Source: Chrysochromulina tobinii
Lineage: Eukaryota
NCBI GenBank assembly: GCA_001275005.1
Contig: JWZX01003109.1
Coordinates: 1-41,453 of the forward strand
Reading direction: 5' to 3'
DNA length: 41,453 nucleotides
Under the pieces are notes generated by a model. It did no database searches and was not told where the DNA came from. It saw nothing but the letters and a program-made list of their open reading frames with translations. This document shows, piece after piece, positions 6,315 to 40,682 of the stretch; position 1 is the stretch's first letter, and each line of letters begins with the position of its first letter. The position numbers and the translations under genes are program-made.

Positions 6315-8067
6315 TCACGGCAGCATCGCCCACACGCGCGCGGGCGCCTCGGGCGCGCCAGCAACGTTGAGCGGCGCGACGAAGACGAGGGCGCCACGCG
6401 GCGGCAGCTCGGGGCCGAGATTGAGGTTCTCGACAATGTAACGGTCGGCGCCCAGGACGACGTGGTGCACGGGGAAGCCACGCGCGGCGCCGTCGCCGCC
6501 GTCGGGCGAGAGCGTGTCGACACCGAGGCCGACGGCGCCGCGCGCCGAAATTAAAAAGCTCGCGGCCGCCTCACTCACGCCCGGGTATGCCATGCGAGGC
6601 AGGCCGATGCTTGGGTCGATGCGCGCCGTATCGGGCGCATTCAAGTATCGGCTGGCGTCGGCGTACCGGTCAGCGGCCCAGCCGGTGCGTATGCACACAA
6701 ACGCGCCGTACGGCACCTGCCCGTGCAACGCCTCGTCCGCGAGAATCACCTCAAGCCCGACGCACACATCCTCGCCCGCGGCCGCGGCCGCCACAACTGC
6801 CAGCGGCACGCTGATGACGGCGAGTGGACGTGCAGCTAGCTCCTCCGTGCCGAGTCCGTCCACGGTCCGGCCACCGGCCACAAAGTGGGCGGGCGCGTCA
6901 ATGTGCGTGCCCGAGCCCCCGTTGAGTGTAAACGACTGCTTCGAGCGACAGAAGGGGTGGGACGTCGTCGCGGGCGACTTGTGCACCTGTGGGGAGAGGG
7001 GCGTGGTCGCGCCGTGGTGAGCACTTGCATGCGGTGGGACGTCGTCGCGGGCGACTTGTGCACCTGACGAAAGAGGCACTCAGTAGCACTCGTTGGCTCT
7101 CGTTGGCACTCAGTAGCACCCATCGGCACTCAGTAGCACTCAGTAGCACTCGTCGGGTGGAGGGGCGCCGTCGCGGGCGCCACTGTCGCACCTCTCGCGC
7201 GAGAGGCTTGCACGTCGGCCACTGTGCGCTGCTCTCCGAGAGGACGAAGCCGCAGTCGACGCAGCGTGCGCACGAGCGCAGTGCAACGGGCGTGGCTGGC
7301 GCGGGCGCAGCGGCCGCCGGCGCGGGCGCTGCGGCAGCCGGCAGAGGGATGCCGAGCAACGTACACAGTGGAGCGGTCGCCGCACTGAGGTCGCTCGCAA
7401 CGACGTGGCACGGCGCGCTGAAGCCACCGCCCGGTGCGCCGCTGCCGCCAAGCGCAGCGTCGAGCGCGATGCCGATAAACGGGCATCCAAAGTCGCGTGC
7501 CGCCTTGCAGTCATTGTCGCCGTCGCCCACATGCACAAGCTCCGCGGGAGCGACGAGGCCCTCGGCGGTGGAGACGGCCATCAGGTTCTCCACCTTGGTG
7601 CCCGGCGCGCCGAGCACCTTACGGAAGCGTGGGCGCCAGCCGAGTGCGTCGATGAGCTCGTCGATGGGCTCCTGCGGCGTCGCCGTGTTCACGTAGCACG
7701 GAACCCCGTGCGCGGTGAGGTGTGCGAGCAGCGCGGTCGCGCCCGGCACCTCCTGGGCCGTGAGCAGCCGCCCCTGGAGCACCGTCGAGAAGGTGTCGCA
7801 CATCTTGGCGCCAAAGGTCACGGCGTCCGTCTCCTCGGACGGCGCCGATCCGCGCTCGATGAGACCGCGCGCCACGCCTTCAAAGATGCTGTAGCGAGTG
7901 ACTTTCACGCCGGCCGGCGCTGTTCGCGAGTCGTGCGGCACGGTCTCGAGCACCGCGAGGCCGCCCTCGTAGGGTGCGACCACCTCACGCATCGTCTGGA
8001 ATTTCGTGTGCTCGCTCAGCAGCAGCGTGTTGTCAAAGTCAAAGGAGACGGCGCGAGGCGTCGGCAT
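6315..8067 (-). CDS. HAD-family hydrolase fused to a kynurenine formamidase-like (putative cyclase) metal hydrolase; exons 8067-7192 and 6986-6315
   Basis: N half has HAD motif I (SFDFDNTL) and motif IV (HVGDGDND). An Ala/Pro linker follows, then the cyclase-like domain (CVDCGFVLSESSAQWP, GTHIDAPAHF, CIRTGW, YPGVS, GLGVDTLSPD, FPVHHVVLG, IVENL, APEAPARVWA). Compound intron 6987-7191 joins LARE|VHKS in frame. Confidence 0.8.
6987..7191 (-). other. Compound intron: two abutting intron units (7191-7064 and 7063-6987), each starting with a copy of the downstream exon start
   Basis: 7063-7033 is identical to exon 6986-6956 (31 nt, GTGCACAAGTCGCCCGCGACGACGTCCCACC), and both copies are preceded by CAG. 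The unit from 7191 begins with a degenerate third copy, followed by GAGTGCTACT-type repeats. Confidence 0.8.
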
Positions 8068-8312
8068 GTGAGCTGGCGTGAATTGGCACGTGAAAATACA
8101 TGTACTCGGAATCTCGTGGAAGATTTCATACATGTACCTTTTCCAATGGCTGTGAATGTAGGCGCAGAATGCTGCCAAGAAGGCTATCTGGAAGTTTAGT
8201 TCCAAATTTGGTTGAAGACTTTAAAAGTCTTTTCGCTCCAAACGCGTGTGCATCGTCGTTCGCGCGAGCGCGGCCGCCGACGACGAACGCATCGCGGGAA
8301 GGCACCTCGTCG

Positions 8313-10974
8313 ATGGAGGTCCTGGATGCCGAGCAGCATGGTGCTGTGGCCTATCGGAGACTTAGGCGCGGGACGTCGTTTTTCAGCCGCTCCCCGGATA
8401 CTCCGTCTCCGCAGAAGACGAGTACTCCGCAGAAGAAGATCGTCGCTGCAGAGCCGGATGCGCCTGCATCGCCAGAGGCGACCAAGATACTCCTCAAACG
8501 CATTCAACGTGATGCGTTGAGTGCGTTGGATGATGCAGACATGAAGAAGCTCGAGAGGCGGCTTGATCATATGGAGCCGATTCAGGAGGGTCTCAAAGCT
8601 TGGCAAGTCAGAGCCCGCGCCAATAGCGCCAGGTACAGCCAGCGCTCCCATAAGGTGGTCAGTCTCGCGCGAAAGATCGCCGCGGAGGAGGCCATCGCTG
8701 CTGCGACCGCGGCGGCGGCGAGCAAGAAGGAGCAGGCTGCAGGCAAGCTGCAGGCAGCGCATCGCGGCCACTCGGCGCGCAAGTCGGTGGAGGCAACAGT
8801 GTCCGAGGCAAGAGTGGCCCGGCGCCTTCGAATGGGCGGCCTTGCCTTCTTGTGTCTGTTTGTCAGCGTGCTCGCCATTGACTTTGGCCGTGGCCTCGCT
8901 AATGTGCTGCGTATGCCGCCGCCGCCACTGCCACCGCCAGCTCCTCCCGCGCCACCGTCGCCGCCATCTCTTCCTCCGCCATCCCCGCGACCACCACCGC
9001 ACCCCCTTCTCCTCAACCAGCGAGCCTTCGTAAGGCCATCATCACCGCCTCCCTCATCGCCGTGTCCCTCATCGACCCCCCCACCGCCGTGTCCCTCATC
9101 GAATCCCCCACCAACGTGTCCCTCATCGAATCCCCCACTGCCTCCCCAACCACCGCATCCCTCACCAAAGCCCCCACCGCCAGCACCCTCCCCACCACCC
9201 CCACCACCCCAAGAGCCCATGGAGCCATGGGCGGTCGTCTTGTTTGGCTCCATCTTCGTGGGGTCCATCTTGATGCTCATTGGGCTCGCCTGCTCCAAGT
9301 CACCCCTTCATGGTTCCAAGTCGTGCCTCCGGAAGTCACCCCTTCATGATGATCGACTTGCGGCGGAGCAGGTGGTGCGCAAGTACGGACTGAATCAAAT
9401 GGACAAGGGAGGGGATGGTTCTTACCGAGAACTATCATCGGGCCCTTATCGATGGGACGTGCGGTCGTACGCGACGCTGGAGGAGGAGGAGGAGGAGGTG
9501 TCGAAGCCCATTCCACCTCGCGTGCACAAGATCCTTGACAAGTTTGACAGGTTCGGCAGCAGCTCCGAACTGATTGCCACTGATCGCCACTGATCGCCAC
9601 TGATCGCCACTGATTGCCTCCCTCATTGCATGCAGGTTCGGCAGCGGCTCCGTGTCGATCGCAGAGCTGAAATCCGCCCTGATCTTGCTCGACGTCGACG
9701 TGGACAACGAGCGAGCGGAGGGCGTCCTCAAGCCTCTCGACCAGTTCAGTCGACCTCTCGGCGTCGACGTGCGCGAGTTCGCCGAGCTGTGGGAGAAGAT
9801 GGCGAAGCCTCCGAAGCTGGAGCCTACGCCAGCGCGCAAGCCCCAATCGCCGAGCAACTCATCGAGCAATCTCCAATCGCCGAGCAACTCACCGAGCAAG
9901 CCGCCCGAGTCCGCAGAGTCCCGAGTCCGCAAGGCCGTGGGCCCGAAGGCCGTCGGCCCGAAGGCGAGGGCAGTCAAGGAGGCGGAGGAGAAGTACCAGA
10001 AGCATCAGGCCGAAGATGAGTTGAAGAGGGCGAGGAAGCAAGCACTGCTCGAGATTCAGAAGGCACTTGCCGAGGCGCAACCCCTCTCCGATGCACTGAG
10101 TGAGCGAGCGAGCTCAGAGCAGGCGTGGTACGAGTGCCTCGATCGGGTGATCGAATGGGATGCGATCGAAGAGAATGAGTTCCGGCGACCCCAGCTCAAG
10201 ACCTCTCGAACGCTTGTGAAGAGCACCGTCGAGCGGGCACTCAAGCGCTGGGGCGTCACCCTCGATGCCATCAACAGCGTCTCCCTCGGTGCGACGGCGG
10301 ACGAGCTCGTCAGCTTCTTCTACACTCACGTGGATAGCAAGTACCAAGAGACGGCACGCCAGAAGCCCCAGAGCCGAAAGCCTTCCCCTCGCTCTCGAAG
10401 CGCGCCACTCCATCCCGAGCCCAAGGTCCCTGTGCGCGCCGGCGTCATCGGCCAGATGCGGACTTCAACCGCCAAGGTCTTCCTGGAGAACTTGGGCCAC
10501 CCCACACACAGTTTGAAGCGCTGTCCATTGTACATCGTGGTGACCGCCTTCGAGGCCGAGGGCTCTGCGCCGACGGTCGATCTTCGCATCTTCGAGAAAG
10601 AGAGCGATGCGTTCTCGACGTTGCTTCAGATGGGGGGCGAGTCCGTGTCCGCTCGAGGCGTCGTCCAGCCTCTCGTCGAAGTGAAGGGTGTCGCGCTCGA
10701 GGACCTGGCGGTCTTCTGCGATGACTGGCAGGACCCGAGCCGCTGGATGCACAAGACTGATTGGGTGCAAGTCACGAAGCCGGTCCCGCTGTCCCCCATG
10801 CTACCTGCTGCGCCCGCGGTGCTGCCCATGCCGTCGTCCCCATCGACGGTTGCGTCGTATCTGAGTGCGTGCTCTTCGGCGCGGGGGTTCCCCGTCGGCG
10901 CGCTCCCCGGGATCCCGTGGGGCTCCCCGGACGAACGCCAGTGTCCGCCTGATGGGGGACCGCCCACCTCCTAG
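8313..10974 (+). CDS. Membrane protein with IQ motif, two TM segments flanking a Pro-rich region, and EF-hand-like loops; intron 9551-9635
   Basis: IQ-like KLQAAHRGHSARK; TMs GGLAFLCLFVSVLAIDF and WAVVLFGSIFVGSILMLIGLA. Splicing restores DKFDRFGSGSVSIAELKSAL (EF-hand-like) and joins ORFs 8100-9593 and 9652-10974. Confidence 0.7.
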
Positions 10975-12961: not shown

Positions 12962-14329
12962 ATGGACTGGCTCAAGTCGGTGCACTTTTACCGCAAGGTG
13001 CCCATCGACCTCACCGAGGCGACGATCTCCGGCGGCGCCATCTCGCTGCTCTCGACGCTCGTGATGGCGTACCTATTCTTCACCAACTTCTCGGCGTACC
13101 TGACCGTGACGCAGAGCACCTCGATCGTGCTCGACTCGTCCGACGAGAAGAAGCTGCAGCTCAACTTTAATGTGACGCTCCACCACCTGCCGTGCCGCTT
13201 CGTGTCGCTCGACATTGTCGACGTCATGGGCACACACCTGCAGAACGTGTCGGCCAACATCCTGAAGACGCGCGTGGATGCAGAGGGCGCGGTGGTGGGA
13301 CACGCGCCCACGGTGCAGCGCGAGATCGCGCACTCGACCGCGCTCGTGCCCGCCGAGCACAAGGACGCGGCCAAGTTCTCGCCCGACCTCGACATGCGAA
13401 CCTTCCTCGAGAGCGTCAAGGAGAAGCGGCTGGTGATGGTCAACTTTTATGCTCCGTGGTGCCCGTGGTCGCGCCGGCTACAGCCCGTGTGGGAGGAGGC
13501 GTACGGCAACGTGGTGCGCAAGGAGTACGCGGGGGACGTGCTCATGGGAAAGGCGGACTGCACGGGGGGCGGCCAGGACCTGTGCCAGAAGCAGCACGTG
13601 CATGCGTTCCCCACAGTACGGGTGTACCGGCGGCACAATCCGCACTCGCACGAGAGTTACGTGGGGGACCGGACGCACCAGGCGCTCGAGGGCTTCGTCG
13701 AAAACAACGTGCACGACGCCGACGAGACCGAGTCGCTCGCTGAGGAGCAGTCGGAAGTGTCAGCTGGCCCAGGGGAGGGATGCTTGGTACGGGGGGTCGT
13801 CTTGGTCAATCGCGTCCCTGGCAACTTCCATCTCTCGGCGCACTCAAAGTCGCACTCGTTCCAGCCGCACAAGCTGAACATGTCGCACACGGTCTCGTCC
13901 ATGACATTTGGGAAGGCGCTCACGCCCACGCAGCTGCGTCTGCTTCCTCGCGAGGTCGAGCTCGGGTACAACGGCCTCGCGGGCACCGAGCACCATTCGA
14001 TTGGTCACAACACGACCCTCGAGCACTATCTCAAGGTGGTGCACACCACGTATGAGGTGAGTGCCGCGAGGACGCTCGAGACCTACCAGTACACGGTCAA
14101 CAACAACCACTACCAGGACGGGGAGTCGCTGCCGTCGGCGGTGTTTGCGTACGACATCTCGCCGATGCAGGTCACGGTCACGGAGGTTCGTCAGTCTCTC
14201 GCAGCGTTCCTGACGTCCATTTGCGCGATCATCGGCGGCGTCTTCACGGTCACCGGCCTCATCGACGGCGGCATCTTCCACACGACCAATGCGCTCAAGA
14301 AGAAGATGGAGATTGGCAAAGCCATCTGA
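12962..14329 (+). CDS. ERGIC_N / thioredoxin / COPII-coated ERV domain protein (PDI-C, PDIL5-4-like)
   Basis: FYRKVPIDLTEAT and LNFNVTLHHLPCRFVSLDIVDVMG (ERV N); VMVNFYAPWCPWS thioredoxin (CxxS); GEGCLVRGVVLVNRVPGNFH; YDISPMQV; FLTSICAIIGGVFTV; C-terminal KKKMEIGKAI. Intronless. Confidence 0.93.
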   Translation: MDWLKSVHFYRKVPIDLTEATISGGAISLLSTLVMAYLFFTNFSAYLTVTQSTSIVLDSSDEKKLQLNFNVTLHHLPCRFVSLDIVDVMGTHLQNVSANILKTRVDAEGAVVGHAPTVQREIAHSTALVPAEHKDAAKFSPDLDMRTFLESVKEKRLVMVNFYAPWCPWSRRLQPVWEEAYGNVVRKEYAGDVLMGKADCTGGGQDLCQKQHVHAFPTVRVYRRHNPHSHESYVGDRTHQALEGFVENNVHDADETESLAEEQSEVSAGPGEGCLVRGVVLVNRVPGNFHLSAHSKSHSFQPHKLNMSHTVSSMTFGKALTPTQLRLLPREVELGYNGLAGTEHHSIGHNTTLEHYLKVVHTTYEVSAARTLETYQYTVNNNHYQDGESLPSAVFAYDISPMQVTVTEVRQSLAAFLTSICAIIGGVFTVTGLIDGGIFHTTNALKKKMEIGKAI

Positions 14330-14703: not shown

Positions 14704-17700
14704 ATGGAGCAGCCGAAGTTGCCGCAGCGGATGCGCGTGTACCTCAATCGCACTGCGCAGGAGGCGGTGCTGCTCCGCAATCCGGAGGCGATCGTGACGA
14801 TCGCGCCCAGCGCCGGCCGTGGCGGCGGCACGAGCCGGAATGCCAAGCCGATGCGCATCGACGTCGCCGATTTGCCTCTGGTTGAGTGGGACGGCCAGCT
14901 CGTTGGCCAGCGGGCCCGCTGCCTCGTGGCCGACGGCGAGTGGATGGATGCCTTCGTCATGGCCTTCCTCGGCGGCCAGCGTGCCTACCGGCTGCTCCTT
15001 GCGGATGGCTCGCAGCTCGAGCGCGGGCTGCCTGACTACCGCGTCGTGCTGGCCGCGGAGGGCGACACCGAGCTGGGCACCGAGGCAGTCAGCTTCCTGG
15101 CCACAGAGCCTCCACCGGAAGCGGTCGTCGGAACGAATGCGGATGCCGATCCTAATTTGGATGCCGTTCCGGCCGGCGGCACTGCGGCCGTTGCCGGCAC
15201 AGCGAGCGCGGAGGCAGCCGCCGAAGCAGCCGCTGAGGGCTCGAGTGCAGCGGCCATGGAGGTGGAGGGGCAGGAGGCTGCAGCGGACGCGCCGCCCGCG
15301 CAGGCCGTCACCGCCGAGCCACTCGCGCCAGTGGCAGAGCCCTCGTCGGCGCCATCTTCGTCCGTGCCGGCTCGGCCGTTACTTCTGTACCGTTCTTCGC
15401 TGACGGCGACTGGGTATCGTGGGGTACGCCCCTCGGCGGCCTTGCGCACCCCGACGAGCGCGAGCGGGTACGAGCTCGCCGTGTACGTCGACGGGCGTGA
15501 AAAGACGAGCGGGCCGTACAACACCGTCCTCGCCGCCGCGCATGAGTACCGTCGGTTACTCGACCTCGCTCTCGATGCGGACGGGCGGCTGATGGACCAC
15601 AGCCGAGCAGCTGGCATACGCTCCACTGGCGGCAGCCGCGCGGGCGGGGACGGCGGCGGCGGCGGTGGCAGCGCGGCGGGTGCGGTCGGCGGGAAGAGAA
15701 AAGGCAAGGAGCTGAGCATCGTGTGGGACGAGACGATCGTCGGTCGTCGCATTCGCGCCTTTTTCCCAGGCAGTGGCGAGTGGATGGATGGGACTCTCAT
15801 CTCGTGCGCCGCCCCCGCGCGCCGCCCGCCACGAAGGCGCCAAGTCCACGGCCGCGTGCATGCATGTGCTCACCACGGCGCCTCGCGCTCTCCCCTCCGT
15901 CTTACACCCTCCGTCTTTCACACCCTCCGTCTTCACAGGTACGCGCCGCCCGCACGCGCCGCGCGCAAGGAAGGCGCCAAGTTCACCGCCTCGTACGACG
16001 ATGGCGAGACCGAGGAGCTTAGCTTGCCGGACGAGAGCGTGCGGCTGCTTCCCGAGGGGTGCGGCCAGGGAGCCGAAGCCCCGCCTCTCACCCGCGAGGA
16101 CGAGAAGCGCGCATACAAATGCCAAGCGCAGCTCGCCGAGGATGCCGCGCGCGCCGAGATCGAGGTGAGACAACCCTGATGGCTCCACTCATCAGCGGCC
16201 CCTGATGGCTTCGCTCATCCACACCCGATTGCTTCGCTCATCAGGCCGAGGGCATTGAGCTCCTCACCTCGTCCAAAACGAGCACGGGCTACCGGTGCGT
16301 CAGCGGCACGCTCGTCCAAGGGCTCGGGGTGATGAGCTACGAGGTCGTGCCCAATAAGGACGGCAAGAAGGTGAGTGTGAATGTGAATGTGAATGTGAAT
16401 GTGAATGAGGTCGTGCCCAATAAGGACGGCAAGAAGGTGAGTGCCACGCGCAGTGCCTCTCTTAGTGGCACGCTCGCTTAGTGGCACGCTCGCTTAGTGC
16501 CACGCGCACACGGGATGGCCTCTGATGGATGCTGCTTGCGTCGCTCATCAGATTCATCTCGGCAAGTTCAAGTCGAAGCTCGAGGCGGCGCTCGTCTTCT
16601 ACAAGTACATGCAGGGGTTGGGTACGTCGGCCATCTCCCGCGTTGGGGGGCTCGAAGCGGTACGGCAACATGCTGATGGAGTTTGAGCTGCCGGATGCGA
16701 TGGAGGGCGGCAAGGCGAACACGATCGAAAAGGTGGGCGGTGCCTCATTCACATTCACATTCACATTCACATTCACACATGGGCGGTACCTCGCCGTGTG
16801 CCCTCGGATGAGGTCGTGCATGGCCACTGATGAGCTTTCGCATGGCCACTGATTGCAGGTGCTCGACGTGCGCGACGTCGAGATCGAGGTGGATGCGGAG
16901 ACGGGAGATCCAATCTCCGACGAGATCGTCCGTTACGTGCCGCCCTCCGCCGAGGGCACAGAAAGCGTAGGCGCCCAGGACAGCGCCGAGCTCATGCAGG
17001 TGACGACGCACCTGAGCACACCGCCCCTGTTCAACGTGCCGCCTCTCGACGAGAGCATGCTCGCCGCCTTGCCAAGCTGCGAGCAGTGGGGCGGCTGGCC
17101 CCGGCTGCAGCTGAGTAAGAGCGCGGTCCACCACACCAAGACGACGCTCGCCGTCCTCGCTGCCAAGTTACCCCACGAGTTTGGCGTGCTCATGCGCACT
17201 CGGGCGGCTGTAGCGGAGGCAGTCCAGCTCATTGAGAGTGTCGAGGATGCGGCGTCCTATCATGCGCAGATCGCACCTCCGCGAGTCGAGGCGCCTGTGG
17301 CCAACGGTCAGCGCTGGTTCCCTTACCCGCCCGACACGTTCGAGATGGCGCTCGATACGGCGCTCGTGATGGCGCTCGATACGGCGCCTGCGGTGGGTCC
17401 AGGCCTCGGCGAGGAAGGCGGCGAGGGCGAGGATGGCGGCGAGGAAGGCGGCGAGGGCGAGGAAGTCGGCGAGGTTGGCGGCGAGGGTGGCGGCGAGGAA
17501 GGCGGCGAGGGTGGCGGCGAGGGCGAGGGTGGCGTGTTCGAGCCCGATCTCATCGACGCCCACGCCAACGAGGACGTCGATGAGACCGCGGGGGAGATGG
17601 AGGTGGAGGGGGATGCGTACAGCGCCGGACCGAGCGCTCGGCTTGGCGCCTGGCGCGGCGCCCGGCGCGGCGCGCTCGTCACCGCGTCCAAAAGCGGCGC

Positions 17701-24121: not shown

Positions 24122-26102
24122 CAATGGGGGCGCGTCGCCTGCTATCAATGGCAGCAGCAACACCTCCGTGCGGCGCAGCGGTGGTGGCGGCGCCGGCGGT
24201 GGCGGTGGCGCCGGCGGCGGCGGCGGTGCAGCGGCGGCAGCAGCTGCGGACGGAGGCAATGAGGGCAAGGAGAGGAGACGAAGCGCCGTACCGAGCACGT
24301 TCGAGCCGAAGGAGACGTCCAAATTAGGAAACAGCGATGCCAAGGGGAAAGGCCCCAAGGGCGGCGGCAAGGGGGATGGCAAGAGCGGTGGCGGCGACGG
24401 CGGCGGTGAGGGTGGCGAGGGTGGCGAGGGCGAGGGCAAGGGAGCTGACGCGCCCGAGTACAGCGTCGAATGCATCGCCGCGGAGCGTATGTTCCGCAAC
24501 AAGCTGCAATATTCGGTCAAGTGGCTCGGGTGCGAGGGCCACTGAGGACTCGATGCTTGCATCTGATCGCAAAGATCACTTTTGATGGCCTCCCTCATTG
24601 CCTGCCTGAGTGCCTGCCTGAGGGCCTGCCTAGGGCCGGCCCGATTGCGCCCGTCATCGGCCCGATTGCGCCTGTCATCAGCCCACTGCCTGAGGGCCTG
24701 CCCGATTGCGCCCGTCATCAGGTACGAGGAGTGGACGTGGGAGCCGGCGGCATTGCTCAAGGACACGGCGGCGCTCGCTGCTTGGGAGGAGCAGAAGCGC
24801 ACGCGCGCCACCCAGAAAGGAAATGCCAAGCGCGCGGCCAATGCGGCCGTAAAGAGCGATGCGGTGCTCGGGACGGCGCTGGTCGCTCTGCAGCCACGGG
24901 CGGAGGACGATCGCGCCCTCAAGAAGGCCTGCGACTGCATGCTGATCGATTGGATGCGCTATGCGGCGGCCAGCGCGGCGTCGCCCGAGACGGCGCCCGA
25001 GGTTCGTCAGGTGCTCGAGCAGCGGCTAGAGCGCCTTTGGCCGCCCGCGCTGCACACGATCTCAGAGACGTCGCTCCGGGTGATGGCGGGGCTCGAGGAG
25101 GCAGTCTCCCATAAGAAGAAGCACAAGCCCGAGCCGCCACAAGGTGCCAAAGCCAGCACCGCGACCAGCAGCGGTGCAACTAGCGCCTCCGCCGCCGCCG
25201 CCGCCGCCGCCGCCTCCGCCTCTGGCGCCACAAAGGAGCGACCGGTGACGCGCTCGACCGAGTACGTGACCGCTCTCGGGTACCACCCGCGCCCTAAGGG
25301 CTTCCCGCCACGGAACGACTCGGACGAGTCGCTCAAATGGAGCTACAAGCGCGGCGTGTGGGTGAACGTCGAGGTGGGCTCTTGAGTGCGCACTTGAGTG
25401 TGAGTGTGAATGTGAATGTGAAGGTGGGCTTCCCCGAGTGCTCACTTGAGTGCCTCTCTGATGAGCCTCCGATTGCATCTCTGAGTGCATGCGGCGGAAT
25501 GCGTCCCCCAATAGGTGGGCACTCGGTGGAAGGGGGTGCTCGCGGACCGCGAGGAGCCTGCGCGCCTCGAGGCCGAGAACGACGCAATGGACGCGGAGAT
25601 TCGGGAGCTCGAGCAGGCGGAGCGGGAGGCGGAGCGTCTCGTGCGCGAGGCGGAGAGGGAGGAGGCGGAGAAGGCGGAGAGGGAGGAGGCGGAGAGGGCG
25701 TCGATCAAGGGGAGCACGGCCGAGATGGAGGCCGAGGAGGGCACCACCGGAGGAGAAGGCGGAGCCCATACGAAGATGGACGTGGAGGAGGACGAGGACA
25801 ATGGAACGACGCCCGTCGCGACGGCAATGGTGGTCGAGATTGTGGTCGCCGCCGCTGCGACCAGTGACGCCCCGACGAGTGGCGGGTCGGGGGACGCGGC
25901 GGGCGTGCTCGTGCTGGCCTCCGCCGTGCTTCCCCCGCGGTCGGCGGCGCTCGAGGCTATCGATCGGGCACTGCCAAAGCTTGCCTCGCGCCTCAAGCTA
26001 CCGGTGGCCGATCTCGAGTGGTACGAAGGCTTTGTGGCCAAGGGGGCGCCCGAGGCGCTCGCGCGGCTGCTTACCTTAGACGGTTGTGCACAAGCGTCAT
26101 AA
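14704..26102 (+). CDS. CHD-type SNF2 chromatin remodeller with AP2-like, Tudor/Agenet and chromodomains; 11 introns (15804-15938, 16165-16244, 16371-16551, 16733-16858, 17762-17969, 21022-21181, 21454-21557, 22074-22221, 22339-22493, 24530-24721, 25374-25514) and 4 apparent frameshifts
   Basis: [81 protein letters not shown] and [44 protein letters not shown]. Chromodomains [26 protein letters not shown] and [15 protein letters not shown]. All introns are GT-AG and restore the frame. Confidence 0.85.
16341..16443 (+). repeat. 37-nt exact direct repeat of exon end plus donor flanking a (GTGAAT)n tract
   Basis: 16341-16377 equals 16407-16443; the spacer 16378-16406 is GTGAAT repeats. Confidence 0.95.
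16734..16792 (-). repeat. (ATTCAC)5 tract flanked by 13-nt direct repeats
   Basis: TGGGCGGTGCCTC (16734-16746) and TGGGCGGTACCTC (16780-16792) flank ATTCAC x5 (16747-16776). Confidence 0.9.
25372..25452 (+). repeat. Degenerate (GTGAAT)n tract flanked by imperfect ~30-nt direct repeats including the donor site
   Basis: AGGTGGGCTCTTGAGTGCGCACTTGAGTG (25372-25400) versus AGGTGGGCTTCCCCGAGTGCTCACTTGAGTG (25422-25452). Confidence 0.8.
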
Positions 26103-27142: not shown

Positions 27143-27157
27143 TCACGAAGGATGCCT

Positions 27158-27641
27158 AATATGGTGTGTGCAGAAGCGCGCATCCGTTGCGGGGACACAT
27201 AACTAACACATAACACCCCCAGAACTGATACGCATCGATATTTCGGAATTCGAAAGCGCCGACCGGAGACCGTCGGCACATTCTCGGAACATCCGGCAGA
27301 GACCGCGGCGATACTTCACTCGCCGAATACAATTGCCATACAATTGTAGTAGAGCAAGATCAGCCCGCTAGCCCGCGCGCGCGTCCGCGCGCGGGCGGCA
27401 GACGAACCGCATAACAGGGTGCCTATAAGGCTTTCCCCTGGGTACTTGTATCCCCTTCCACCCAAACGGCGGTGAGACCCCCCTTGTGGGTTCTCCCGCA
27501 TCCCCCCTGTCCGGTTCCATGATGGATACCGTCCTGGTGTAATCTCCAAATCTGTAATCTGGCCCTTCACGTTGGGTTCACAGCCGTTTAACTTTGGGCG
27601 TCACACGGCAATATGGTGTGTGCAGAAGCGCGCATCCGTTG
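27158..27641. repeat. 32-nt exact direct repeat bracketing a 420-nt intergenic segment
   Basis: AATATGGTGTGTGCAGAAGCGCGCATCCGTTG at 27158-27189 and 27610-27641. Confidence 0.92.
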
Positions 27642-27970: not shown

Positions 27971-30900
27971 ATGGCGACCATCCAGGATCTCCGTTTCCGA
28001 CCACCCGCCATTCCATTGCTACTGGGCGATCCGTACCTCCAAACCTGGATCTTTGGCGACAACGTGACAGAGCCGATCCGGCACTGGACGGGCATCGCAA
28101 AAGACACCCTTGGACTCGTGCGGGTGGATGGACGCACGTACCGCTTCCTCGGCTCGTGCCACACTGCGCCGGCGACCCAGCCTGGCCCCGTGGTGAATCT
28201 CACCAATAGCAATCTGGCTCCGTCTGGTTGCGACATTGATCACACGGACGACGCCGGAGATGCGGAGTGCAACCTGCGCTGCTACTCCGATCCAGATTGC
28301 GTGGCCTACGTGCGAGGCGGCGACCCGCCTCGGTGCTTCCTCAAAAGCTGCGCCTATCCGATCGAGGAGGACACGGAGCTGAACTCGAGCGTGCTCACTG
28401 GCATGCATCCGCCGTGCGACATCGACGTGTCTGCACTCACGCAGCGTTCTGTCCTCGTTCTCCCCACTCGCACCGTCGTCCACCTCGAGCTCCCAGGTGT
28501 GCTCTCGCTCAATCTGACGTTTCGTCAAACGGCCTTCCCTGATGACCTGATACGCTTGAGCCGCCCCGTGTACTACATCGAGCACCACACTGCGTCGCTC
28601 GACGGCATGCCGCACCGCGTGCAGCTCTACTTCGACGCGAGTGCCGCTCACACCGTCAACAGCTGCTGGGACACGTCGGTGCGTCGACTGCAACCGGATT
28701 GCATCGGATGGCCTCGGGGCTGGCTGGGGTGTAGCCATTGATGTCACTGCTTGTCACTGATTGCGTCGGATGGCCTCGGGGCTGGCTGGCAGGGGTCTCT
28801 GACGGCCTCCCTCATGTCAATTGATGTCACTGATTGTCACTGATGGCCGTTGATGGCCTCCCTCATCAGGTGCGCTGGTCCGAGTGGTCTCGCCTTCTGA
28901 GTGCCTCTGATGAGCCGTTGATGGCCTCCCTCATCAGGTGCGCTGGTCCGATTGGTCTCGCCAGGGGGTGCGTGGCATCCAAATGGGCTCCGACTCGCAG
29001 CCGGTCCTCGGTGCCGCCGCGACGGACCGGTCGAACATTGATTGGGGCTTCCTGCATCTCGCGGTGCAGCTGCCGCCACAACAGGCAAAGCACTCCGCCA
29101 CCGCCGCCGCCGCACCCGCACCCGTGGACCTTCGTGCTGGCTCTGCGGCGCGGAGCCGATCGGCCTTCATCGCGTCGGGAGTTTTGCCGAATGTAACTGA
29201 CGGACGGCAGCCGCGGCGCTGTTCAGACGATTTACCGACCCTGTCAGCTGCTGTCGACCTCGGAGCCGTCGATAGCGCGGGCGCTTCGCACTTGGTGCTG
29301 ATGGCGTATGATGATGTGCGCTCGGTCGAATACTTTGGAGCACGGGTGTGACGAAACCCATCGATGGCCACGGATTGCTGTGGATGGCAACTGATTACTG
29401 TGGATGGTCACTGATTACATTGGAATCGCTGTGGATGGCCACTGATTACTGTGGATGGCCACTGACGACTGCCATGATCGGCTGAGATCACGTGTGGTGA
29501 GCGCAGTACGCGGCCTTGTGGACGCATACGTACCCTGACGTGCAGGAGGCGATAGGGGCCGCAGCGGCCGAAATCGACGCGATGCGTACCCGCGGCGACG
29601 CGCTCGATGAGCAGCTCATCAGCGAATGGAGCCGTGCAGGCGGCGTGAAGTATGCGGCGGTGCTCGCGCTTGCATGGCGCCAGGTGCTCGCTGCGCTCAA
29701 GACCGTCTGGGCGACCGACCGGAACGCGAGCTGGACGTTCCTCAAGGAGATCTCGACCAACGGAGATATGAGCACCGTCGATGTGATCTTTCCCTCGACG
29801 CCGATGCTGCTGCACGCGGCACCTGAGCTGCTTCGTCAACTGCTCCTGCCCGTGCTCGCATACGCCCATAACGAGACGTACGTTCAATTCTCAGACCCGT
29901 ACTCGCCTCATCAGCTGGGGACGTACCCGATTGCAAATGCGCCCACGAAGGAGCAGGTGTGATTGCGTCTGATGGCCTCCCTCATCATGAGCCAATGCCT
30001 ATCGAGCAGCATGCTGCTGATGCTGATTGCGTCTGATGGCCTCCCTCATCAGGAGCCAATGCCTCTCGAGAACTCAAGCAACATGCTCCTGATGCTCCTC
30101 GCGCTGGTACAGCGCTCTGGCGCCGTCTTGGCGCGCCAATGGCTCGCCCCCTACCTGCCGTTGCTGACCACGTGGACGGAGGTGCTGATAGGTACGGCGC
30201 TGAGCCCCACACCAAACTGCTGAGCCTTCACACCGAACCGCTGAGCCTTCACACCGAACCGCTGAGCCTTGATCGCCTGAGTGCGACTGATGGCGTCTTA
30301 GGTCATCACTGAGTGCACCCGATTGCGTCACTGAGTGCACCCGAATGCGTCGGATTGCCACCTTCATCAGAGACGACGCTCTTTCCAGCGGAGCAATTAA
30401 GCACCGACGACTTTGCCGGCCCGATTGCGAACAACACCAACTTAGGGCTCAAGGGCATCCTAGCCATCCGTGCCTTTGCGGAGCTGTGCACCATCATGCA
30501 GCTCGATGATGAGTCTCGTCAATTTAATGGCGGCCGCGCCCCTCCTCAGCATGGCGGCCGCGCCCCTCCTCAGCATGGCGGTCGCGCCCAGGACGGCGCA
30601 CGTACCGGCCGCCCGTGCGCGGAGTATGCTTCGATTGCGGCGGACTATGCTTCCACGTGGCAGCTGTATGCCTTCAACGCGACTGGGCAGCCGCCACACT
30701 ACTCGATGAGCTTCAACGTGGACGAGTACCAGGACTCTTGGTCCCTCAAGTACAACCTGCTCTGGCAACGGCTGCTACGGCTCGATGGTCCATTTGATTA
30801 CGATGCGATTGCGGCGCTCGAGACGGCGTACTACCTCGAGCAAGCGAATGAGTTTGGGACGCCACTCGACCCTCGCCATCAGTACACGAAGGCGGACTGG

Positions 30901-31234
30901 CTGTCCTGGGTGGCTGCAATGTCCCCGGATGAAGGTGCGAACTCAGCCTCTCTCCGAGATCTCTCCGATTCGAACTCTCTCCGAGATCTCTCCGAGATCC
31001 GATCCTGTACCCTCGAGATCTCTTCGGACGACGCTTACTGCTCTTGGCGTGTGCTCGGCATTTGCAGCTCGTTGGCATGCTCTCTTCAGCCCGATCTTCG
31101 AGGTGCTCAACACAACGTCGAGCCGTGCGCCGTTCACCGACTTGTACGACACGATCTCCGGCGAGCTGGCCATCAACGGCGCCTTCATTGCACGCCCCGT
31201 GGTCGGCGCCCTCTTTGCCAAGCTACTGCTCTGA
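27971..31234 (+). CDS. Glutaminase A (GtaA / DUF5127-DUF4965-DUF1793 type) with inserted PAN/apple-like domain; introns 28679-28937, 29346-29506, 29957-30052, 30192-30370, 30935-31067
   Basis: RPPAIPLLLGDPY, GLVRVDGRTYRFLG, FLKEISTNGDMSTVDVIFP, PYSPHQLGTYP, EPMPLENSSNML, QLSTDDFAGPIANNTNLGLKGILAI, SWSLKYNLLW, YTKADWLSW, PFTDLYDT and FIARPVVGALFA. Five GT-AG introns restore the frame. An upstream in-frame ATG at 27872 is possible. Confidence 0.88.
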
Positions 31235-31398
31235 AAAGGGTCGGATCTGCCTTCCCCCCGCAACCTGTTATACTGACGAAACTCTGTCCTCCCCTATATT
31301 TATTTTCTTTCCCAAAACTAAACATGTGTCACAGCAAGTTTCCAAAGCTGGCAACCACAAAAAGGGCGACCAGGACAAAGACCTACGCTGCTGCTGAG

Positions 31399-31854: not shown

Positions 31855-32398
31855 TTGCCTTGCGACGCGGATTTGCCGGTTGCGCGGCGCGCGCACCAAG
31901 CAATTGCGCGCATCCGCGCAAGATGAGAGGGGCGGCAAATTGGGGCGGGGCAGCGCAAGGTCGGCGTGCAAGTGCCCTGCCGGAAAGTCTAGCTGAGGAG
32001 GAGATAAGGAGGAGAGCGGACTGTGAGTCGGCAGTACTATGTGGAGTGCCCCGCGTGATTCACGAGTGCAGACTGATCTGTTTTCGATCGCGGTCTGTGG
32101 CGTCCGGTCCGCTCGGGTTCGGTTCCAGGCGGCTGTGTGTTGCTTAACACCGTACACGCTTAGCATGCCTGGGGGAGACCCCCTCGTCACGTGTACGCTG
32201 CCTGTAGGCGATGTTTACTTACTTACTTGCGGGGTTCGGGGCGGCGCGAACCAGCGCAGAACGCCGCCGGCCGCGGGGCGCGGGCCCCCCGTGTGTCGTG
32301 CGCCGCGGTCAATTTGGCAACCAAGCGGGTCACAACCCCCGCACACATTCGACGTGCTCAGTAAAATCTGCCCAGACCCCAATCGCGTGTGGATGTGA

Positions 32399-34463: not shown

Positions 34464-34498
<35 letters not shown>

Positions 34499-34943: not shown

Positions 34944-35069
34944 GGACTGGGCGTGCTTGGGCGTGTGCTTCCCTGACCGTGATCGGGTGTCCCATAATAG
35001 GCACTCATCAAGGCGATTCGTCAATTTGTCGAAGAAGTGACGAAAAAGGCGTCTGTCATCATCATACAC

Positions 35070-35698
35070 ATGCAAGCCTTTCTCGCACTCTTCTTCGCTC
35101 TCCTCTCGGTCGCCAACGGTGAGCCTCGCATGTTAACCCATTTGCAACGAGCGTTGACAGACCGCTCCCGGGCGGGTCACGCCCTTTCCCAACCATCTTC
35201 CCTCACGTCCCATGAGCAGCGCGCGCGCTCAAAATCTCCCTCGAGCAATGTGAGGGGCATCCCCGTTGAGCCATGTTCACATATACGCCTCCCGTTGCGT
35301 GTGCCGCAGGCTTTGTGCTCGCTCCATTCGTTGCGCGCGCGCCGACGCGCGCCGCCTCCATCCCGATGATGGGCGTCGAGGATGCCGCCGCCAAGTGCCT
35401 CGAGGAGGAGTGCTCGCTCGACACCATCGACGACCTGATCGCCGAGTTGACGAAGGAGGTCTCGTCGATGACGATGACCCTGCCGCTCTCCCAGCGCCAG
35501 CGCTCGGTTCTAGCGACGCTGCAGCAGCTCAAGACCATCGGCTCGAAGGCCGACAAGGGCACGCTCCAGGCGATCATCGAGGCCGCTGCACGGAGCTTCG
35601 CCGTGGTCGAGAACTTCAACTTCCCGGGCGAACCGCTTGGGTACACGGGCACGGTGGGCACCCAGACCATCGCGGGCCGTGTCTTCGACAAGAAGTGA
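35070..35698 (+). CDS. Small hypothetical plastid-targeted protein; intron 35119-35309
   Basis: MQAFLALFFALLSVAN|GFVLAPFVARAPTRAASIPM is a bipartite-type leader (signal peptide, F at +1, Arg/Ala transit). Mature region begins AAAKCLEEECSLDTIDDLIAEL. Confidence 0.7.
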
Positions 35699-36286
35699 GG
35701 CACTTCACCCCCGGTTTCATGTCGGAGATCCAGATACAATCTGGACCGATCCCCACTGATCTGCCGTGTTGGGACCTTCCCTTCCGGACCGTTACGCGTA
35801 CCATCCTCAAGGACGTTCCTGAGGCATGCGCCCTCACGGCATTGGGAGGACGAGGAGTGCACCCCACGCGCATGACGGTAAGCGTCTCGGCGATGGAGAG
35901 GCGAGAGCAGCGGAGTTTGCACGTGTCCGGTCCTCAGTGGAGGTGCTTGACGAACGTGGATGAGTATAAATGAGTATTCTTCGGGTTAACTGTGGACTCA
36001 CGTATTGAGAGATATTTATAACTCAACAAGCTCCAACCAATTTGCGGGACCCCTGAAGTACGGTTGGGGAGTTTGAATCGGAGATGCCCGCTTGAGTGTG
36101 TGGTACACACGCCCCACCCGCACCCCCAGCACACGGACTCAGCGACTCACCATATGCGACGCGACTGCTGCGTGGCAGTGTTTCGTTCGGTGGTCGTTCG
36201 CGTGTGTCGATTTCTCTCCTACCAGAGGGAAAAGAGGGAAAACCCTTTCACAGTGTGAGGTGTGAAACTTTGCTTTGGTGTGGAGG

Positions 36287-38507
36287 ATGTCCCCCTGGAA
36301 GGTGACGTCTTGGACCGTTGGTGTGATCTGCATCCTCCTCGTGGCTGTGGACTGGTCGGCCAGCAGCGTCTTGGTGCAGGCCATCTTCACGGCCGAGAAT
36401 TTCAATAAACCTGTCTTTCTCACGTGGCTTGGCAACAGCCTGTTCGCGGTGCTCATTCCCATCAAGCTGCTTCTGGACGCTGCACGCCGACGGATCGGTA
36501 CACGATATTGTGCTGGCCGCTCCGAGAGCGAAGATCCGAGTGTGGTCACCATGCACGCGGCGTGCGAGAGCCATGGTGAGCGTCCATACGAGCCGCCGAG
36601 GACCATAGCGGCATGGTATTTTTCGGCGCCCGTGCAACGGGCTGCACGCGCGGGCGCGATGATCGCTCCCATCTGGTTCGCGGCGAACTGTACGTACAAC
36701 ATTTCGATGTCGCTCACGTCGATCACCTCCTCCACGGTCATCTCCTCATCCTCCTCAGCCTTCACCCTCCTTCTCTCCGTCCGTTGGCTCGGCGAGGCAC
36801 CAACGCCCCTCAAGCTCGTCGGCGTCGGTCTGTGCTGGCTTGGCAATGGGCTCACGGCCCTCAAGGACAGCGACTTCGAAGGTGGCGGCAGCGGCGGAGG
36901 CGGCGGCGGAGGCAGCGTCGGCGTCGGCGGCGGCGGTGGCGACGGCGGTGGCGACGGCGGCAGCGGCGAAAGCGATAAAGGTGGGCCGAGCCATTCATTC
37001 ATAGGTGACGCGGTCTGCCTGCTGGGCGCTGTGCTGTATGCCGTGTACACGGTGCTGCACCTCCGAGCTCGAGCCGACCAGGCTGATGGCCCCTGATGGC
37101 GCCTGATGGCCCTCAATTGCCCTTGATTGTCCTTGATTGCCCTTGATTGCCCTCAATTGCCCTTGGTTGCCCTTGATTGCCCTCGATTGCCCTTGATTGC
37201 CCTTGATTGCCCCCGAGTACAGGTGCTCATCCGCAAGCTCGAGCCGCCCGACCTGTCCCTCTTTTTTGGCTTCCTGGGGGTGACGACCTTTCTCCTGTTT
37301 GGGCCTCTGATCGCGCTGCTGCATGTGACCGCGGTCGAGGACGTGAGTGCGCTCACATTCACGGTGTTTGGGCTCATTGTTCTCAAGGTGGGCTGGCTAA
37401 TGATGGCTGCTTGCTTGCAGCTGCTTGCAGCTGCTGGCTTCTGATGGCCATTGACGACCACTCCTGGCTACTGCTGCTCATTGATGGCCATTGGATGTGA
37501 TGGGATGTCGAGCTGACGCTCACGGCTATGTGTGTCGTCTCCTTGCGATCTGATAGCGTGCTCTGAATACCCTTGATGAAGACCGTTCCCCCTGTGAATA
37601 CCCTTGATGAAGACCGTTCCCCCTGTGAATACCCTTGATGAAGACCGTTCCCCCTGTGAATACCCTTGATGAAGACCGTTCCCCCTGTGAATACCCTTGA
37701 TGAAGACCGTTCCCCCTGTCAATTGCCCCAGGGTCTCCTCGATAATGTACTCTCGGAATACCTGTGGGCGACTGCAGTGCTGCTCACCTCTCCTAGCGTG
37801 GCTACGGTTGGCCTCGCGCTCACGGTGACGCTCGCCACTTCAATTGCCGTCGATGACCTCTGATGACGATTGAGGCTCGATGCGTCTCTGATGACCTCTG
37901 ATGACCTCTGATGACCTCTGATGACCTCTGATGACCTCTGATGACCTCTGATGACGATTGAGGCTCGATGCGTCTCGATGCGTCTCGCTGACTGGCTTCC
38001 TGATTGCGACGCTGATTGCGACGCTGATTGCCTCGCGCGAGTGCTCCTGCGCGTGTCAACGTCGCCTCTTGCAGGTGCCGATGAGTATACCCTTGATTAC
38101 GCATGAGTACTCTTGATTACCCTGAGTGTCACCGTCGCCCCTTGCAGGTGCCGCTCGCCATCGTGTCCGACCTTGTCCTGCCTCGTGCATGGCTCGTCGA
38201 TCCACAAGCGCCACGAGTGACCTCACTCGCCGCCGCCGCCGCCGTCATCGCCGGCTTCATCGCCATCAACTGTGCGGCGAAGGCCGAGGATCGCCGGACC
38301 GAGCGCGCGGAACACGAAGGCGATTGCGACATGTGCTTGTGCCAGTGGACGGGCACGCGAGTGCCGTTACTTGGACGGCGCGCCGACGACGGCACGCTTC
38401 GGCTTGCGCCCAACGCGCCCGCCTCGGACGCGCCCGATATGGCGCCCGACGCATGCGCACCGTCAGTGATCAACTATGGCACTATTCGCCGGGACTCTAG
38501 TACCTGA
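36287..38507 (+). CDS. SLC35F/EamA (DMT superfamily) transporter, Thi74/SLC35F5-like; introns 37052-37222, 37388-37731, 37825-38147
   Basis: FNKPVFLTWLGNSLF, IWFAANCTYNISMSLTSITSSTVISSSSSAFTL, GDAVCLLGAVLYAVYT|VLIRK, FFGFLG, K|GLLDNVLSEYLWATAVLLTSPSVATVGLALT|VPLAIVSD. Confidence 0.9.
37564..37718 (+). repeat. Intronic minisatellite, 31-nt unit x5 perfect copies
   Basis: TGAATACCCTTGATGAAGACCGTTCCCCCTG repeated head-to-tail without spacers just upstream of the acceptor at 37731. Confidence 0.95.
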
Positions 38508-38614
38508 TCACGGGGAGGTGGGAAATAACCACAATCAAACAGATCTGGAGAGATCGGTATCCGAAAAGGTTTTTCTATTCATAGAAGATCGTCGCTGTGA
38601 AGAGAAGACAGAGA

Positions 38615-40682
38615 ATGGCGAGACTGGCCCTTCTGACTCTTCTCGTTGTCGCCGCCGCCGCACTATCACGACAGCCGCTCTCGCGCTTCAATACGCTTCC
38701 ATGCGTCGGCACCGTCGCCAGCGGCTCGCGAGAGCTCCTTGTAATCGGCACCGCACACACGCCATGCAGATCATCTGCCGAAGTGTCGGCGCTCATCGCT
38801 CAATCGCGGCCAGACGTCGTGATCATCGAGTTGGATCAGGAGCGCCTAGAATGCTTGCTGCGCACGGACGAGCAAGGCAACGGCGAGCAGCTGCGGTACG
38901 GCGCCGACTTTGCTGCAGCTGTGCGCGGCGCGGCCGAGCTGGGCGTGCCCATCGTGCTCGGCGATGCCAAGGCAAGGGACTTGGTCGCGAGGCTGCGCGC
39001 GGCCGGCGCCGTCGCAGACGGCGAGCGCCTGTGGCGTGCCGTGCAGCTTGCTCTCAAGGGTGGGCGAATCACGGACGGGGTGCGTGCTTCGTACGTGAAC
39101 GTGGCGTCGAGCTTACGCGACGACCCGGCAAAGATGCTGCCGCTGCTCGCGGGGGTGTGGTGGACGGTGCTGCTCACCGGCCTATCCGGCCTCGCCACAG
39201 CGCCTGCCTTGCCCGTCGGCGCCGACGAGGCTGGCGTCATCCCGTGGCTCGCGACCGCGGCAATGGAGCTCTCCGCATTCGGCGGCGCGCTCGTGCTCTT
39301 GCTGTGCGTGCGCGTGTTGGATGAGCTGCTGCTAAGAAGAGACGAAATCCTCGCTGCGAGTACGCTGATTGCCACTGATTGCAACTGATTGCCATTGATT
39401 GATGCTAAGAAGAGACGAAATCCTCGCTGCGAGTACGCTGATTGCCACTGATTGCAACTGATTGCCATTGATTGATGCTGAGACGAGACGAAATCTTCGT
39501 TGGGAGTACACTACTCGCTCGACCACCACTAATCGCCGCTGATCGCCAATGATTGCCATTGATTGCCACTGATTGCCTCTGATTGCCACTGATTGCCACT
39601 GATTGCCACTGATTGCCAGTGATGGCCTCCCTCGTTGCATGCAGGTGCGCTGCGAGGGCTTGAGCTCGCGCGCGGCCTGCGAGACGGCCGGCTGCTGCGC
39701 CGACGCTTCACCTTCTCGACGGACCCGACGCTCGTCGCTCGAGCGCCGCTGGATTGCCAAACCCCCATCTTCACACCCTTCTTCACCGTGCGCCAGCCGG
39801 CTCGCTTTGGAGCGCCGTCTCCACAGTCGGCGTGCACGCGTGCGCTCACCACGGCGCCTTGCCCTCCTCCGTCCCCACACACAGGTGCGTCGGCCGCTTC
39901 GCGCGGGCGAGGAGCGCCGTCTCAACCTCTTCGAGCCTCGCTGGCTTGCGCTCCTCGATAGCCTCGCCGCCTCCACGGCGGCTTCCACAGCGACTTCCGT
40001 TCGGCGCGAGGCGACGGGCGCTGCGGCGGGCGCCGCATGCGGTTGCGGCGAGCAGGCCTTGTCGTCCTTGCTCGTGGACGCGTCGTTTGGGTGCGTCTTT
40101 GCGGTGAACGAGCAGTCCGTGCCGGTGCCGGTGGCGGTGGCGGCCTCGGGATTCGCGGAGGGCGTGGGGGGAGTGGGGGGAGTGGGGGCGAGCAGTACGC
40201 GGATCGACGACGTGGTCATTCCTCGAGTTGGACGGCGTGCGCGCATCGTGCGCATCGAGGAGGGCGTGCGCCCAGTCACAGGCGCTCGCCGGCTCGTTGT
40301 CTGGCTCGTGGGCGAAGAGCCTCTCGCCATCGACGACCGAACGCTCCACCCGACGGGCGGCGGTTACCTGAGCGCCGTGGCGACGCCATGCGACGAGGCG
40401 GCCTTTGAGATCGCCCACGGGCCGATCGCCGACGCGCTCGATGGCGGAACTCGGGCGATGCCGGAGGTGGCGGGCGACGCGAGTGGCAGCGTGGCGGGCG
40501 ACGCGAGTGGCAGCGTGGTGCGTGCGCTGTTAGTGGTCGGCCTTGCCCACGCAAACGGGGTGCTCGTGCGCGTCGCGGACCAGCGGATGCGCCCGCCACA
40601 GCGCCAGCCTCTGTATTTCGACGAGCGCGCTGGTGGCGGCGCGGACGACGAGCTCGAGCCTGGCTGGGTAGGCTGGTCTTAG
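38615..40682 (+). CDS. TraB/PrgY-family protein with inserted TM segments and a LON-N-like domain; introns 39360-39644 and 39788-39884
   Basis: Signal peptide; ELLVIGTAH, RPDVVIIELDQERL, IVLGD, LLLRRDEILAAS and final LLVVGLAHANGV (TraB motifs). PFFT|VRRPLRAGEERRLNLFEPRW resembles the LON_substr_bdg start. Confidence 0.72.
39330..39512 (+). repeat. 73-nt tandem duplication of exon end, donor and intron start (2 exact copies plus 1 degenerate partial copy)
   Basis: Units start at 39330, 39403 and 39476 (TGCTAAGAAGAGACGAAATCCTCGCTGCGAGTACGCTGATTGCC...). Confidence 0.9.

Follow-up and report, generated by a model that had tools for sequence, protein, structure and literature searches.

The 41,453-nt contig JWZX01003109.1 of the alga Chrysochromulina tobinii, analyzed here in full and called the window below, contains introns with a characteristic architecture: the 5' end is a copy, perfect or decayed, of the start of the next exon and serves as donor, while the remaining insert provides the branch point and the acceptor AG, so that splicing restores the coding sequence exactly. 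This duplicate-intron pattern is real and is widespread in the sampled loci, and it is very likely a record of recent intron birth. We further propose that such introns are likely born in a single repair event in which the tail of an existing, often nearby, intron is copied. The anatomy itself had been described in an earlier, sequence-only reading of the window, and it is borne out by a codon model: of 72 cases tried, 52 are flanked on either side by confidently coding sequence, and in 48 of these the frame is restored once one copy and the insert are removed, whereas shuffled controls give 38%.

Introns starting with a copy of the next exon

An independent reading of the window gives 26 introns, 17 of them followed by an exon starting with GT, the same counts as in the sequence-only reading. 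Junctions are supported by RNA joints for nine introns, among them the joint at 35119-35309, and by protein homologues for six more. In an anchored alignment of intron and exon starts, six of the 16 GT-followed introns scored (those with 5' ends at 7191, 9551, 15804, 37052, 37825 and 39788) reach at least 8, as against 5 of 416 mismatched pairs, among which the maximum is 9. Direct comparison reproduces the previously noted matches at 9551 (16/17), 7063 (31/31), 28870 (24/25) and 37825 (12/13), and gapped anchored alignment recovers those at 15804, 37052 and 39788 with scores of 29, 12 and 8. The proposed duplicates at 24530 and 39360 (7/8 each) and at 25374 (8/9) did not survive the controls: their anchored scores of 5.5-6.5 are equalled by 60 of the 416 control pairs, so that matches of this kind are near chance level and singly no evidence for duplication. 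Splicing, which the sequence-only reading had named as a check for its ten introns, is seen in RNA at 15804, 24530 and 25374, whereas no joint is among those listed, at low depth, for 7063, 9551, 39360 and 39788; homologous proteins place the junctions of two more, 37052 and 37825. The intron at 15804-15938, spliced in all four RNA runs, is the case that combines a long duplicate with RNA support.

Beyond the window, the tests covered 121 metagenome loci together with the window itself. The loci were picked by an 18-nt intron-tail motif, and the duplicate rates below are therefore rates for these loci and not genome-wide ones. The 18-mer scan took in 8 of the 64 parts of the metagenome collection, and about 1,100 such stretches are estimated overall. 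Many loci are 99-100% identical to one another or to the window, and others are 92-98% identical. Acceptors were called by three tail motifs alone, defining families A, B and C (the 3' ends of the A and B tails are fixed by the motif definition itself), and the 487 matches reduce to 291 after collapsing and de-duplication. Two loci, L034 and L098, were removed for low GC content, and the bacterial chance matches in L042, L113 and L068 were kept among the 291 acceptors as non-hits.

GT follows 200 of the 291 acceptors, and 88 of these 200 have an upstream copy of the following sequence at a score of at least 12, whereas shuffled pairings give a mean of 0.5 and a maximum of 2; the comparison with shuffled pairings suggested from the window thus yields a very large excess in the sampled loci. 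Copies at the same threshold accompany 8 of 31 GC-followed acceptors (shuffled mean 0.1) and 18 of 60 with other starts (shuffled mean 0.7). This brings the total to 114 of 291, which divide into 82 primary cases, with exon-like sequence before the first copy (67 starting with GT, 5 with GC and 10 otherwise), and 32 recurrent ones, with intron-like sequence before it. Duplicate length varies continuously from 11 to 65 nt, and the units of duplicate plus insert are mostly 62-100 nt. The sequence-only reading had proposed duplications of 8-55 nt beginning at a GT; the GT is not necessary, given the non-GT starts and the further classes described below. The spread from perfect to decayed copies that it had noted recurs across the loci, with 42 perfect duplicates of at least 12 nt, 44 at 90% identity or more, 15 below 90% and 6 short perfect ones; of the primary duplicates, 38 of 82 are perfect. 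The duplicate starts are donor-like, with GTGCG or GTACG in 30 of 67, and AG stands at the exon end before 30 of the 82 primary duplicates, compared with 10 of 13 other introns in the window (p=0.013).

The inserted sequence

Three features, namely the absence of terminal repeats, the diversity of 5' ends and the presence of three unrelated tail families, give the inserts an appearance unlike that of a single mobile element. No terminal inverted repeats are present among 76 inserts (at most 7 of 10 positions match, and 3 of the 76 have 6 or more), and none of 82 inserts has terminal direct repeats. The 5' ends show 71 distinct 8-mers in 76 inserts. Two of the 76 are at least 90% like another insert and 18 at least 80%, the shared part being the 3' tails only. 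The inserts end in CAG with repeats upstream, and not in a poly(A) or simple-repeat 3' tail. Duplicates accompany the tail families at equal rates (A 65/151, B 4/9 and C 19/40, that is 43-48%), which speaks against the single shared acceptor cassette or retro-like element suggested from the window. When one example per family was folded, the A end formed a hairpin (z -2.67), and the B and C ends, with z of about 0, folded no better than shuffles.

At the entry junction, where the last bases of the duplicate were compared with the bases that normally precede the insert start, the microhomology averages 1.9 nt over the 35 cases, of 90, for which a template can be inferred, as against 0.59 nt in simulated blunt joins, a difference matched in 0 of 20,000 resamples; microhomology at the return junction is not separable from the donor consensus. 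The tails also tend to resemble those of neighboring introns: 13% versus 2% of pairs exceed a 12-mer sharing of 0.2 when same-strand acceptors lie less than 1.5 kb apart, with background reached by 4-10 kb (the pairs are not independent). When about 287 candidate templates are ranked, a nearby intron comes within the first three in 11 of 66 young cases (8 loci), where 2.2 are expected.

Other registers of the same mutation

The arrangement is not confined to duplicates that provide the donor. In a mirror class, comprising 13 of 151 rows, the duplicate ends in AG and the filler provides the GT; all eight testable cases are in frame, as are five of five under a stricter filter. Four further rows have AG/GT inside the duplicate (both testable ones in frame), with filler present too. 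At 7063 the register is different again, an unrelated tail having been added at an older acceptor. Duplicates spanning a donor and fillers stopping mid-repeat are also seen, the census giving no fraction for them, and simple tandem units, 54-110 nt long and lying across acceptors and donors, are frequent (28870 and 39360 in the window, and L026, L058 and L095).

A side observation is a unit on the minus strand of L047, its end some 2,061 nt from the start of that strand, in which a perfect 17-nt duplicate starting with GA and a family-C tail make up 78 nt open in the coding frame: it is a GA-AG intron or else an intron that failed and was retained as 26 codons.

Empty site and relatives

The sequence-only reading predicted that empty sites should carry one copy of the duplicated sequence, and a single site, which does not set the direction of change, agrees with this. 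In a PPR-like gene, a 79-nt unit is present in locus L011 (9535-9613), its 28-nt duplicate being perfect, where L025, differing by 75 of 4,094 aligned bases, has a single copy and an open frame; a weak PPR match runs across the empty site (E 0.022). The tail of the L011 unit is closely like that of the intron 438 nt upstream in the same gene. Other overlapping loci differ in unit copy number and in one whole-intron doubling.

More distant comparisons involve the glutaminase and transporter genes of the window. ORF (open reading frame) fragments on 10-11-kb contigs of one relative, 57% identical in its glutaminase, appear to read through all five intron positions of the window and to break at another, a comparison that gives no direction; a transporter homologue, on contigs no longer than 10 kb, runs through three intron positions as a single ORF. 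In the proteins P0124 and P0167, the sequence from residue 671 is a read-through into the relative's own intron, its translation being compatible with GT followed by CTGATTGC-like repeats. Judged from protein, this suggests that the distant relative may share the same intron style.

A proposed repair origin and its alternatives

Our preferred mechanism, to which we give a probability of slightly over one half (about 0.52), is microhomology-primed templated insertion in the course of break repair or fork restart: introns already present would serve as templates, and selection would pick the spliceable register. A staggered break or stalled fork would leave a 3' end in coding DNA, which would prime by 2-5 nt of microhomology within the branch-point repeats of another intron and copy about 35-70 nt through its AG; the end would then rejoin 11-65 nt upstream of its point of departure, doubling that stretch. 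Selection would retain exact splicers, with a GT or GC start, a donor-like context and a unit of mostly 62-100 nt, or products falling inside an existing intron. Later, the direct repeat could permit expansion of the unit to arrays or its exact loss. As each new intron ends in AG/GT and can template the next, the process would feed itself without a transposase. Polymerase theta-type end joining would be a guess at the enzyme; among the papers listed in a literature search for polymerase theta or alternative end joining (alt-EJ), nothing concerned Chrysochromulina. The outcomes described for break repair include partial tandem duplications whose filler is templated from close by (PMC7407515). 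The evidence for the repair reading comprises the anatomy, the frame restoration, the splicing at 15804, the empty site, the microhomology, the local likeness of tails and the other registers; of the mechanisms that the sequence-only reading had offered, staggered-break templated insertion fits best and a retro-like element is not supported.

Several points weigh against this proposal. The acceptors of the metagenome loci are defined by motif alone. No nearby intron is among the top 3 candidates for 55 of the 66 young inserts, and local gene conversion after birth could be another source of the local likeness. Among 28 tail clusters, in overlaps totalling 28.2 kb, one site shows presence/absence, and gain in one line and loss in the other both fit it. 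The 5'-duplicate class outnumbers the mirror class by about 4:1 (53 versus 13 rows), and tails end exactly at AG before non-GT starts in L041, L060, L076, L110 and L047, where the AG seems useless, a hint of some built-in bias towards the 3' ends of introns. Microhomology at the 5' junction is also expected from target-primed reverse transcription.

The excess of the AG-ended class over the mirror class and the AG-ended tails at non-GT sites keep a different template, excised intron RNA, in contention, unlikely as we consider it. Here the AG end of the lariat would be joined or primed at a nick before a GT and partly copied, by target-primed reverse transcription or by spliceosome attack on R-loop DNA, and second-strand repair would make the long duplication. 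A precise AG end with a ragged 5' end, the same-gene bias of tail likeness and the donor-like starts would follow naturally, and spliceosomes are able, after splicing, to employ the lariat 3'-OH as a nucleophile, R-loop insertion having been proposed (PMC10996645). Against this stand the mirror class, the class with AG/GT inside the duplicate and the fillers stopping mid-repeat, together with the presence of (GTGAAT)n filler in both orientations in one gene (16377 versus 16746), while the donor-like target is explained equally by selection; the comparison of same- with opposite-strand templates had 5 opposite-strand near pairs only. A tentative possibility is that the spliceosomal introns here are their own mobile agents, the excised AG end being caught by donor-like GT sites within the same gene and copied in part. 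If so, any intron could seed new exact introns nearby without a transposon, a general route that Introner searches would miss because the copies share just a short tail.

It is distinctly unlikely that the inserts are a short non-autonomous mobile family acting as an Introner, either SINE-like (short interspersed nuclear element) or HUH/Replitron-like, in which one end is precise, the other fuzzy and the duplication variable. The hairpin at the common 3' end of family A would suit such a family, as would the likeness to Replitron-1, which also adjoins a dinucleotide and has a fuzzy other end and variable duplications; C. tobinii is reported to have one Replitron locus (PMC10288648). Yet the inserts have neither terminal direct nor inverted repeats and form no full-length family, the B and C ends lack such folding while the three tail families behave alike, the mirror class is not accommodated, and no Introner families are scored for C. 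tobinii (PMC12130899). Quite improbable, too, is that no new positions arise at all and that introns are rejuvenated by tandem duplication across an old acceptor followed by exact deletion of the original upstream intron part. The common plain tandem units, the intron-like sequence preceding 32 of 114 duplicates and the empty L025 allele, which could be a loss between 30-nt repeats, are in its favor. However, primary cases outnumber recurrent ones 82 to 32, with 38 of the 82 still perfect; the low AG frequency before primary duplicates is the opposite of what AG/GT-guided deletion predicts; several recurrent cases have unrelated tails; and relatives read through these intron positions. Rejuvenation thus explains the arrays, but neither the excess of primary cases nor the rarity of AG before them.

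Artefacts of assembly or retained coding repeats, which the sequence-only reading had named as what would refute it, are largely refuted and have next to no probability. The window does collapse one array (two versus five copies) and has four 1-nt indels relative to RNA. Against a general artefact are RNA splicing, diverged copies, cases common to assemblies 2-4% diverged, and the agreement of DNA runs and independent assemblies: ten DNA runs contain 0.97 of the words of 28000-31300, and besides the 28870 array the independent assemblies L016 and L017 show no intronic indel of at least 5 nt over 18.9-40.0 kb.

Relation to known systems

The mode behaves as repair-associated gain does, and its splice logic is like that of Introners. 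A close precedent for the former is Daphnia pulex, in which introns are gained by staggered double-strand break repair with repeats of 4-12 bp and mostly unknown insert sources (PMC4202315). Direct repeats of the adjacent exon, presence/absence alleles and repeated secondary events inside young introns are common to both, but here the repeats span 11-65 nt, and what is inserted is like the 3' parts of introns of the same genome, often ones close by. The templated insertions of alt-EJ and of SD-MMEJ (the synthesis-dependent form of microhomology-mediated end joining), and the partial tandem duplications of rice, likewise combine microhomology priming with duplication and local filler; unlike the introns here, those events are scattered mutations and, in the portions available, are not described as a self-feeding source of many introns (PMC7407515). 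In the AGGT model (reviewed in PMC3443670), tandem duplication of an AGGT-containing exon segment also makes an exact intron, and a few of our cases do have AG/GT inside the duplicate; here, however, a foreign tail gives the branch point and usually the AG, and AG precedes GT in only 30 of 82 primary sites.

By the tests of family structure, duplication length and terminal repeats, these introns are not Introners. Introners of Symbiodinium and Polarella (classes 4/5 and 6/8/10) carry the acceptor and obtain the donor from the target duplication (10.1101/2020.10.14.339549), and family fam24 of Emiliania, with 5 copies, has "10bp terminal direct repeats" (PMC12130899). The origin of donor and acceptor and the enrichment of GT after the acceptor are the same here; however, the dinoflagellate Introners have fixed 3-8-nt duplications, discrete families and, in Symbiodinium, inverted repeats, none of which we found. 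The Introner family of a Chrysochromulina metagenome-assembled genome (MAG), with 4-bp duplications and a donor of its own (10.1101/2022.06.06.494994), also differs from the introns described here, and a 2025 survey gives 0 Introner families for C. tobinii (PMC12130899). Of the features that define Introners, a duplication-derived splice site with exact restoration (as in the codon model and in RNA at 15804) and a single-copy empty site are present, and a characteristic duplication length, a near-identical full-length family and inverted repeats, these last a mark of many Introner families though not of all, are absent. Target-primed reverse transcription by non-LTR (long terminal repeat) elements and SINEs has a fixed 3' end, a variable 5' end with microhomology and a variable duplication, like the main class here and unlike the mirror class and the mid-repeat fillers; a poly(A) or simple-repeat tail was not found, nor, by Rfam matches in the window, an RNA-gene-derived head. 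Replitron-1 of Chlamydomonas shares the precise end beside a dinucleotide, the fuzzy end, the variable duplication and copy-and-paste spread, but its elements are 0.9-3.6 kb long with terminal direct repeats and a transposase, none of them seen here (PMC10288648).

The sequence source of new introns without an evident transposon is a long-standing question (PMC3443670, PMC4202315, PMC4683709). Among the papers listed in searches of a literature in which subscription papers are sparsely covered, none describes this pattern in Chrysochromulina. Each young intron here preserves a record of its target, in the duplicate, of its age, in how far that duplicate has decayed, and often of a candidate donor intron. 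The process seems to be continuing, and intron birth could be studied, in an alga that can be grown in culture and of which sequenced strains exist. As C. tobinii came out at zero in a published screen for Introners, the process may be overlooked elsewhere in the same way. It also offers a simple reason for the GT after acceptors and for exact intron loss between long repeats.

Features of the window

Table 1. Intron features of the window (a slash marks the splice junction in the protein).
Feature	Position	Strand	Remarks
Compound cyclase-gene intron	6987..7191	-	frame restored KPLARE/VHKSPA; Pfam Cyclase in exon 2; no joint among listed RNA joints
Second, younger event at cyclase site	6987..7063	-	perfect 31-nt duplicate and family-C tail
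Clean primary case	9551..9635	+	16/17-nt duplicate, 10-nt CTGAT repeats, family-B tail; reading-frame basis; no joint among listed RNA joints
Intron, CHD-like helicase gene (named from reading the translation)	15804..15938	+	decayed duplicate of about 54 nt, family-C tail
Duplicate of upstream exon end and donor, 34 nt, with (GTGAAT)n filler	16344..16442	+	inside intron 16371-16551
Intron, 7/8 match near chance	24530..24721	+	spliced in 2/4 RNA runs
Intron, 8/9 match near chance	25374..25514	+	spliced in 3/4 RNA runs
Glutaminase intron 1	28679..28937	+	holds 67/68-nt acceptor-plus-exon-start unit 28870-28937
Intron with inner 17/18-nt exon-start duplicate starting with GA	29957..30052	+	duplicate preceded by a tail with AT in place of AG
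Transporter (PF00892 homologues) intron 1	37052..37222	+	decayed 27-28-nt duplicate; junction by homologues P0001/P0002; score 12
Transporter intron 3	37825..38147	+	12/13-nt duplicate; second AG then 6-nt exon-start copy at 38074-38080; junction by homologues
Intron, 7/8 match near chance	39360..39644	+	73-nt tandem repeat of upstream exon end and donor; junction by reading alone
Intron, decayed 14/18 duplicate	39788..39884	+	family-C tail; junction by reading alone

Two units taken as stand-alone introns in the sequence-only reading, 7063 and 28870, were rejected as such, both being inner units of longer introns. Upstream of 7063 lie the repeat tail and AG of the longer intron with its donor at 7191. 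That intron opens with a copy, decayed and gapped, of the start of the next exon; 10-nt branch-point repeats and an inner AG at 7065-7064 come after it. As this older copy is decayed and the two tails are unrelated, with 3 nt in common, the cyclase site took two events. The 28870 unit is a tandem-repeat unit within glutaminase intron 1, for which homologues join 28678 to 28938 and RNA contigs end at 28677-28683 and resume at 28937; it has two copies in the window and five in L017, an independent assembly 99.9% identical. The family-A tail at 28838-28869 folds as a hairpin in which the branch-point-like word CTGATG pairs with the terminal CATCAG (z -2.67), which may be relevant to splicing or to the origin of the tail.

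Removal of 9551..9635 gives a putative EF-hand-like loop; exon 9637-10971 has no Pfam match. RNA pieces at 16344..16442 are consistent with use of the first donor. Repeats of (GTGAAT)n at 16377-16407, 16746-16777 and 25395-25426 lie in introns of one gene, in both orientations. The long helicase gene has one-base indels relative to RNA contigs (3-4 runs) at 16645, 18251, 19433 and 21330, probably errors of the window assembly that break the frame.

Elsewhere in the window, which is nuclear DNA of a haptophyte and has no Rfam match, the product of the single-exon gene at 12962-14326 is 100% identical over its whole length to a protein named from Chrysochromulina parva. High-copy intergenic repeats at about 27250-27490 and 32190-32215 reach DNA depths in the thousands (run X9), the sequence at 27160-27189 recurs at 27611-27640, and L017 is 66 nt longer in a coding charged repeat at 25697.

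Some matches to the tail motif were set aside: L042 and L113 were considered as distant relatives and rejected as bacterial coding matches, three matches in prokaryote genomes are chance coding matches as well, and the viral contigs searched contain none. Among the metagenome loci, a 97-nt intron 5' segment at about 4526-4622 of L066 is doubled head to tail relative to L057, with an AG/GT junction that is a possible recursive splice site. L072 is 724 nt longer than L041 at position 10085 of the latter, and L033 (7284-8389), L047 (1-1683) and L054 (2429-2940) have in common long tandem arrays with a 69/138-nt period.

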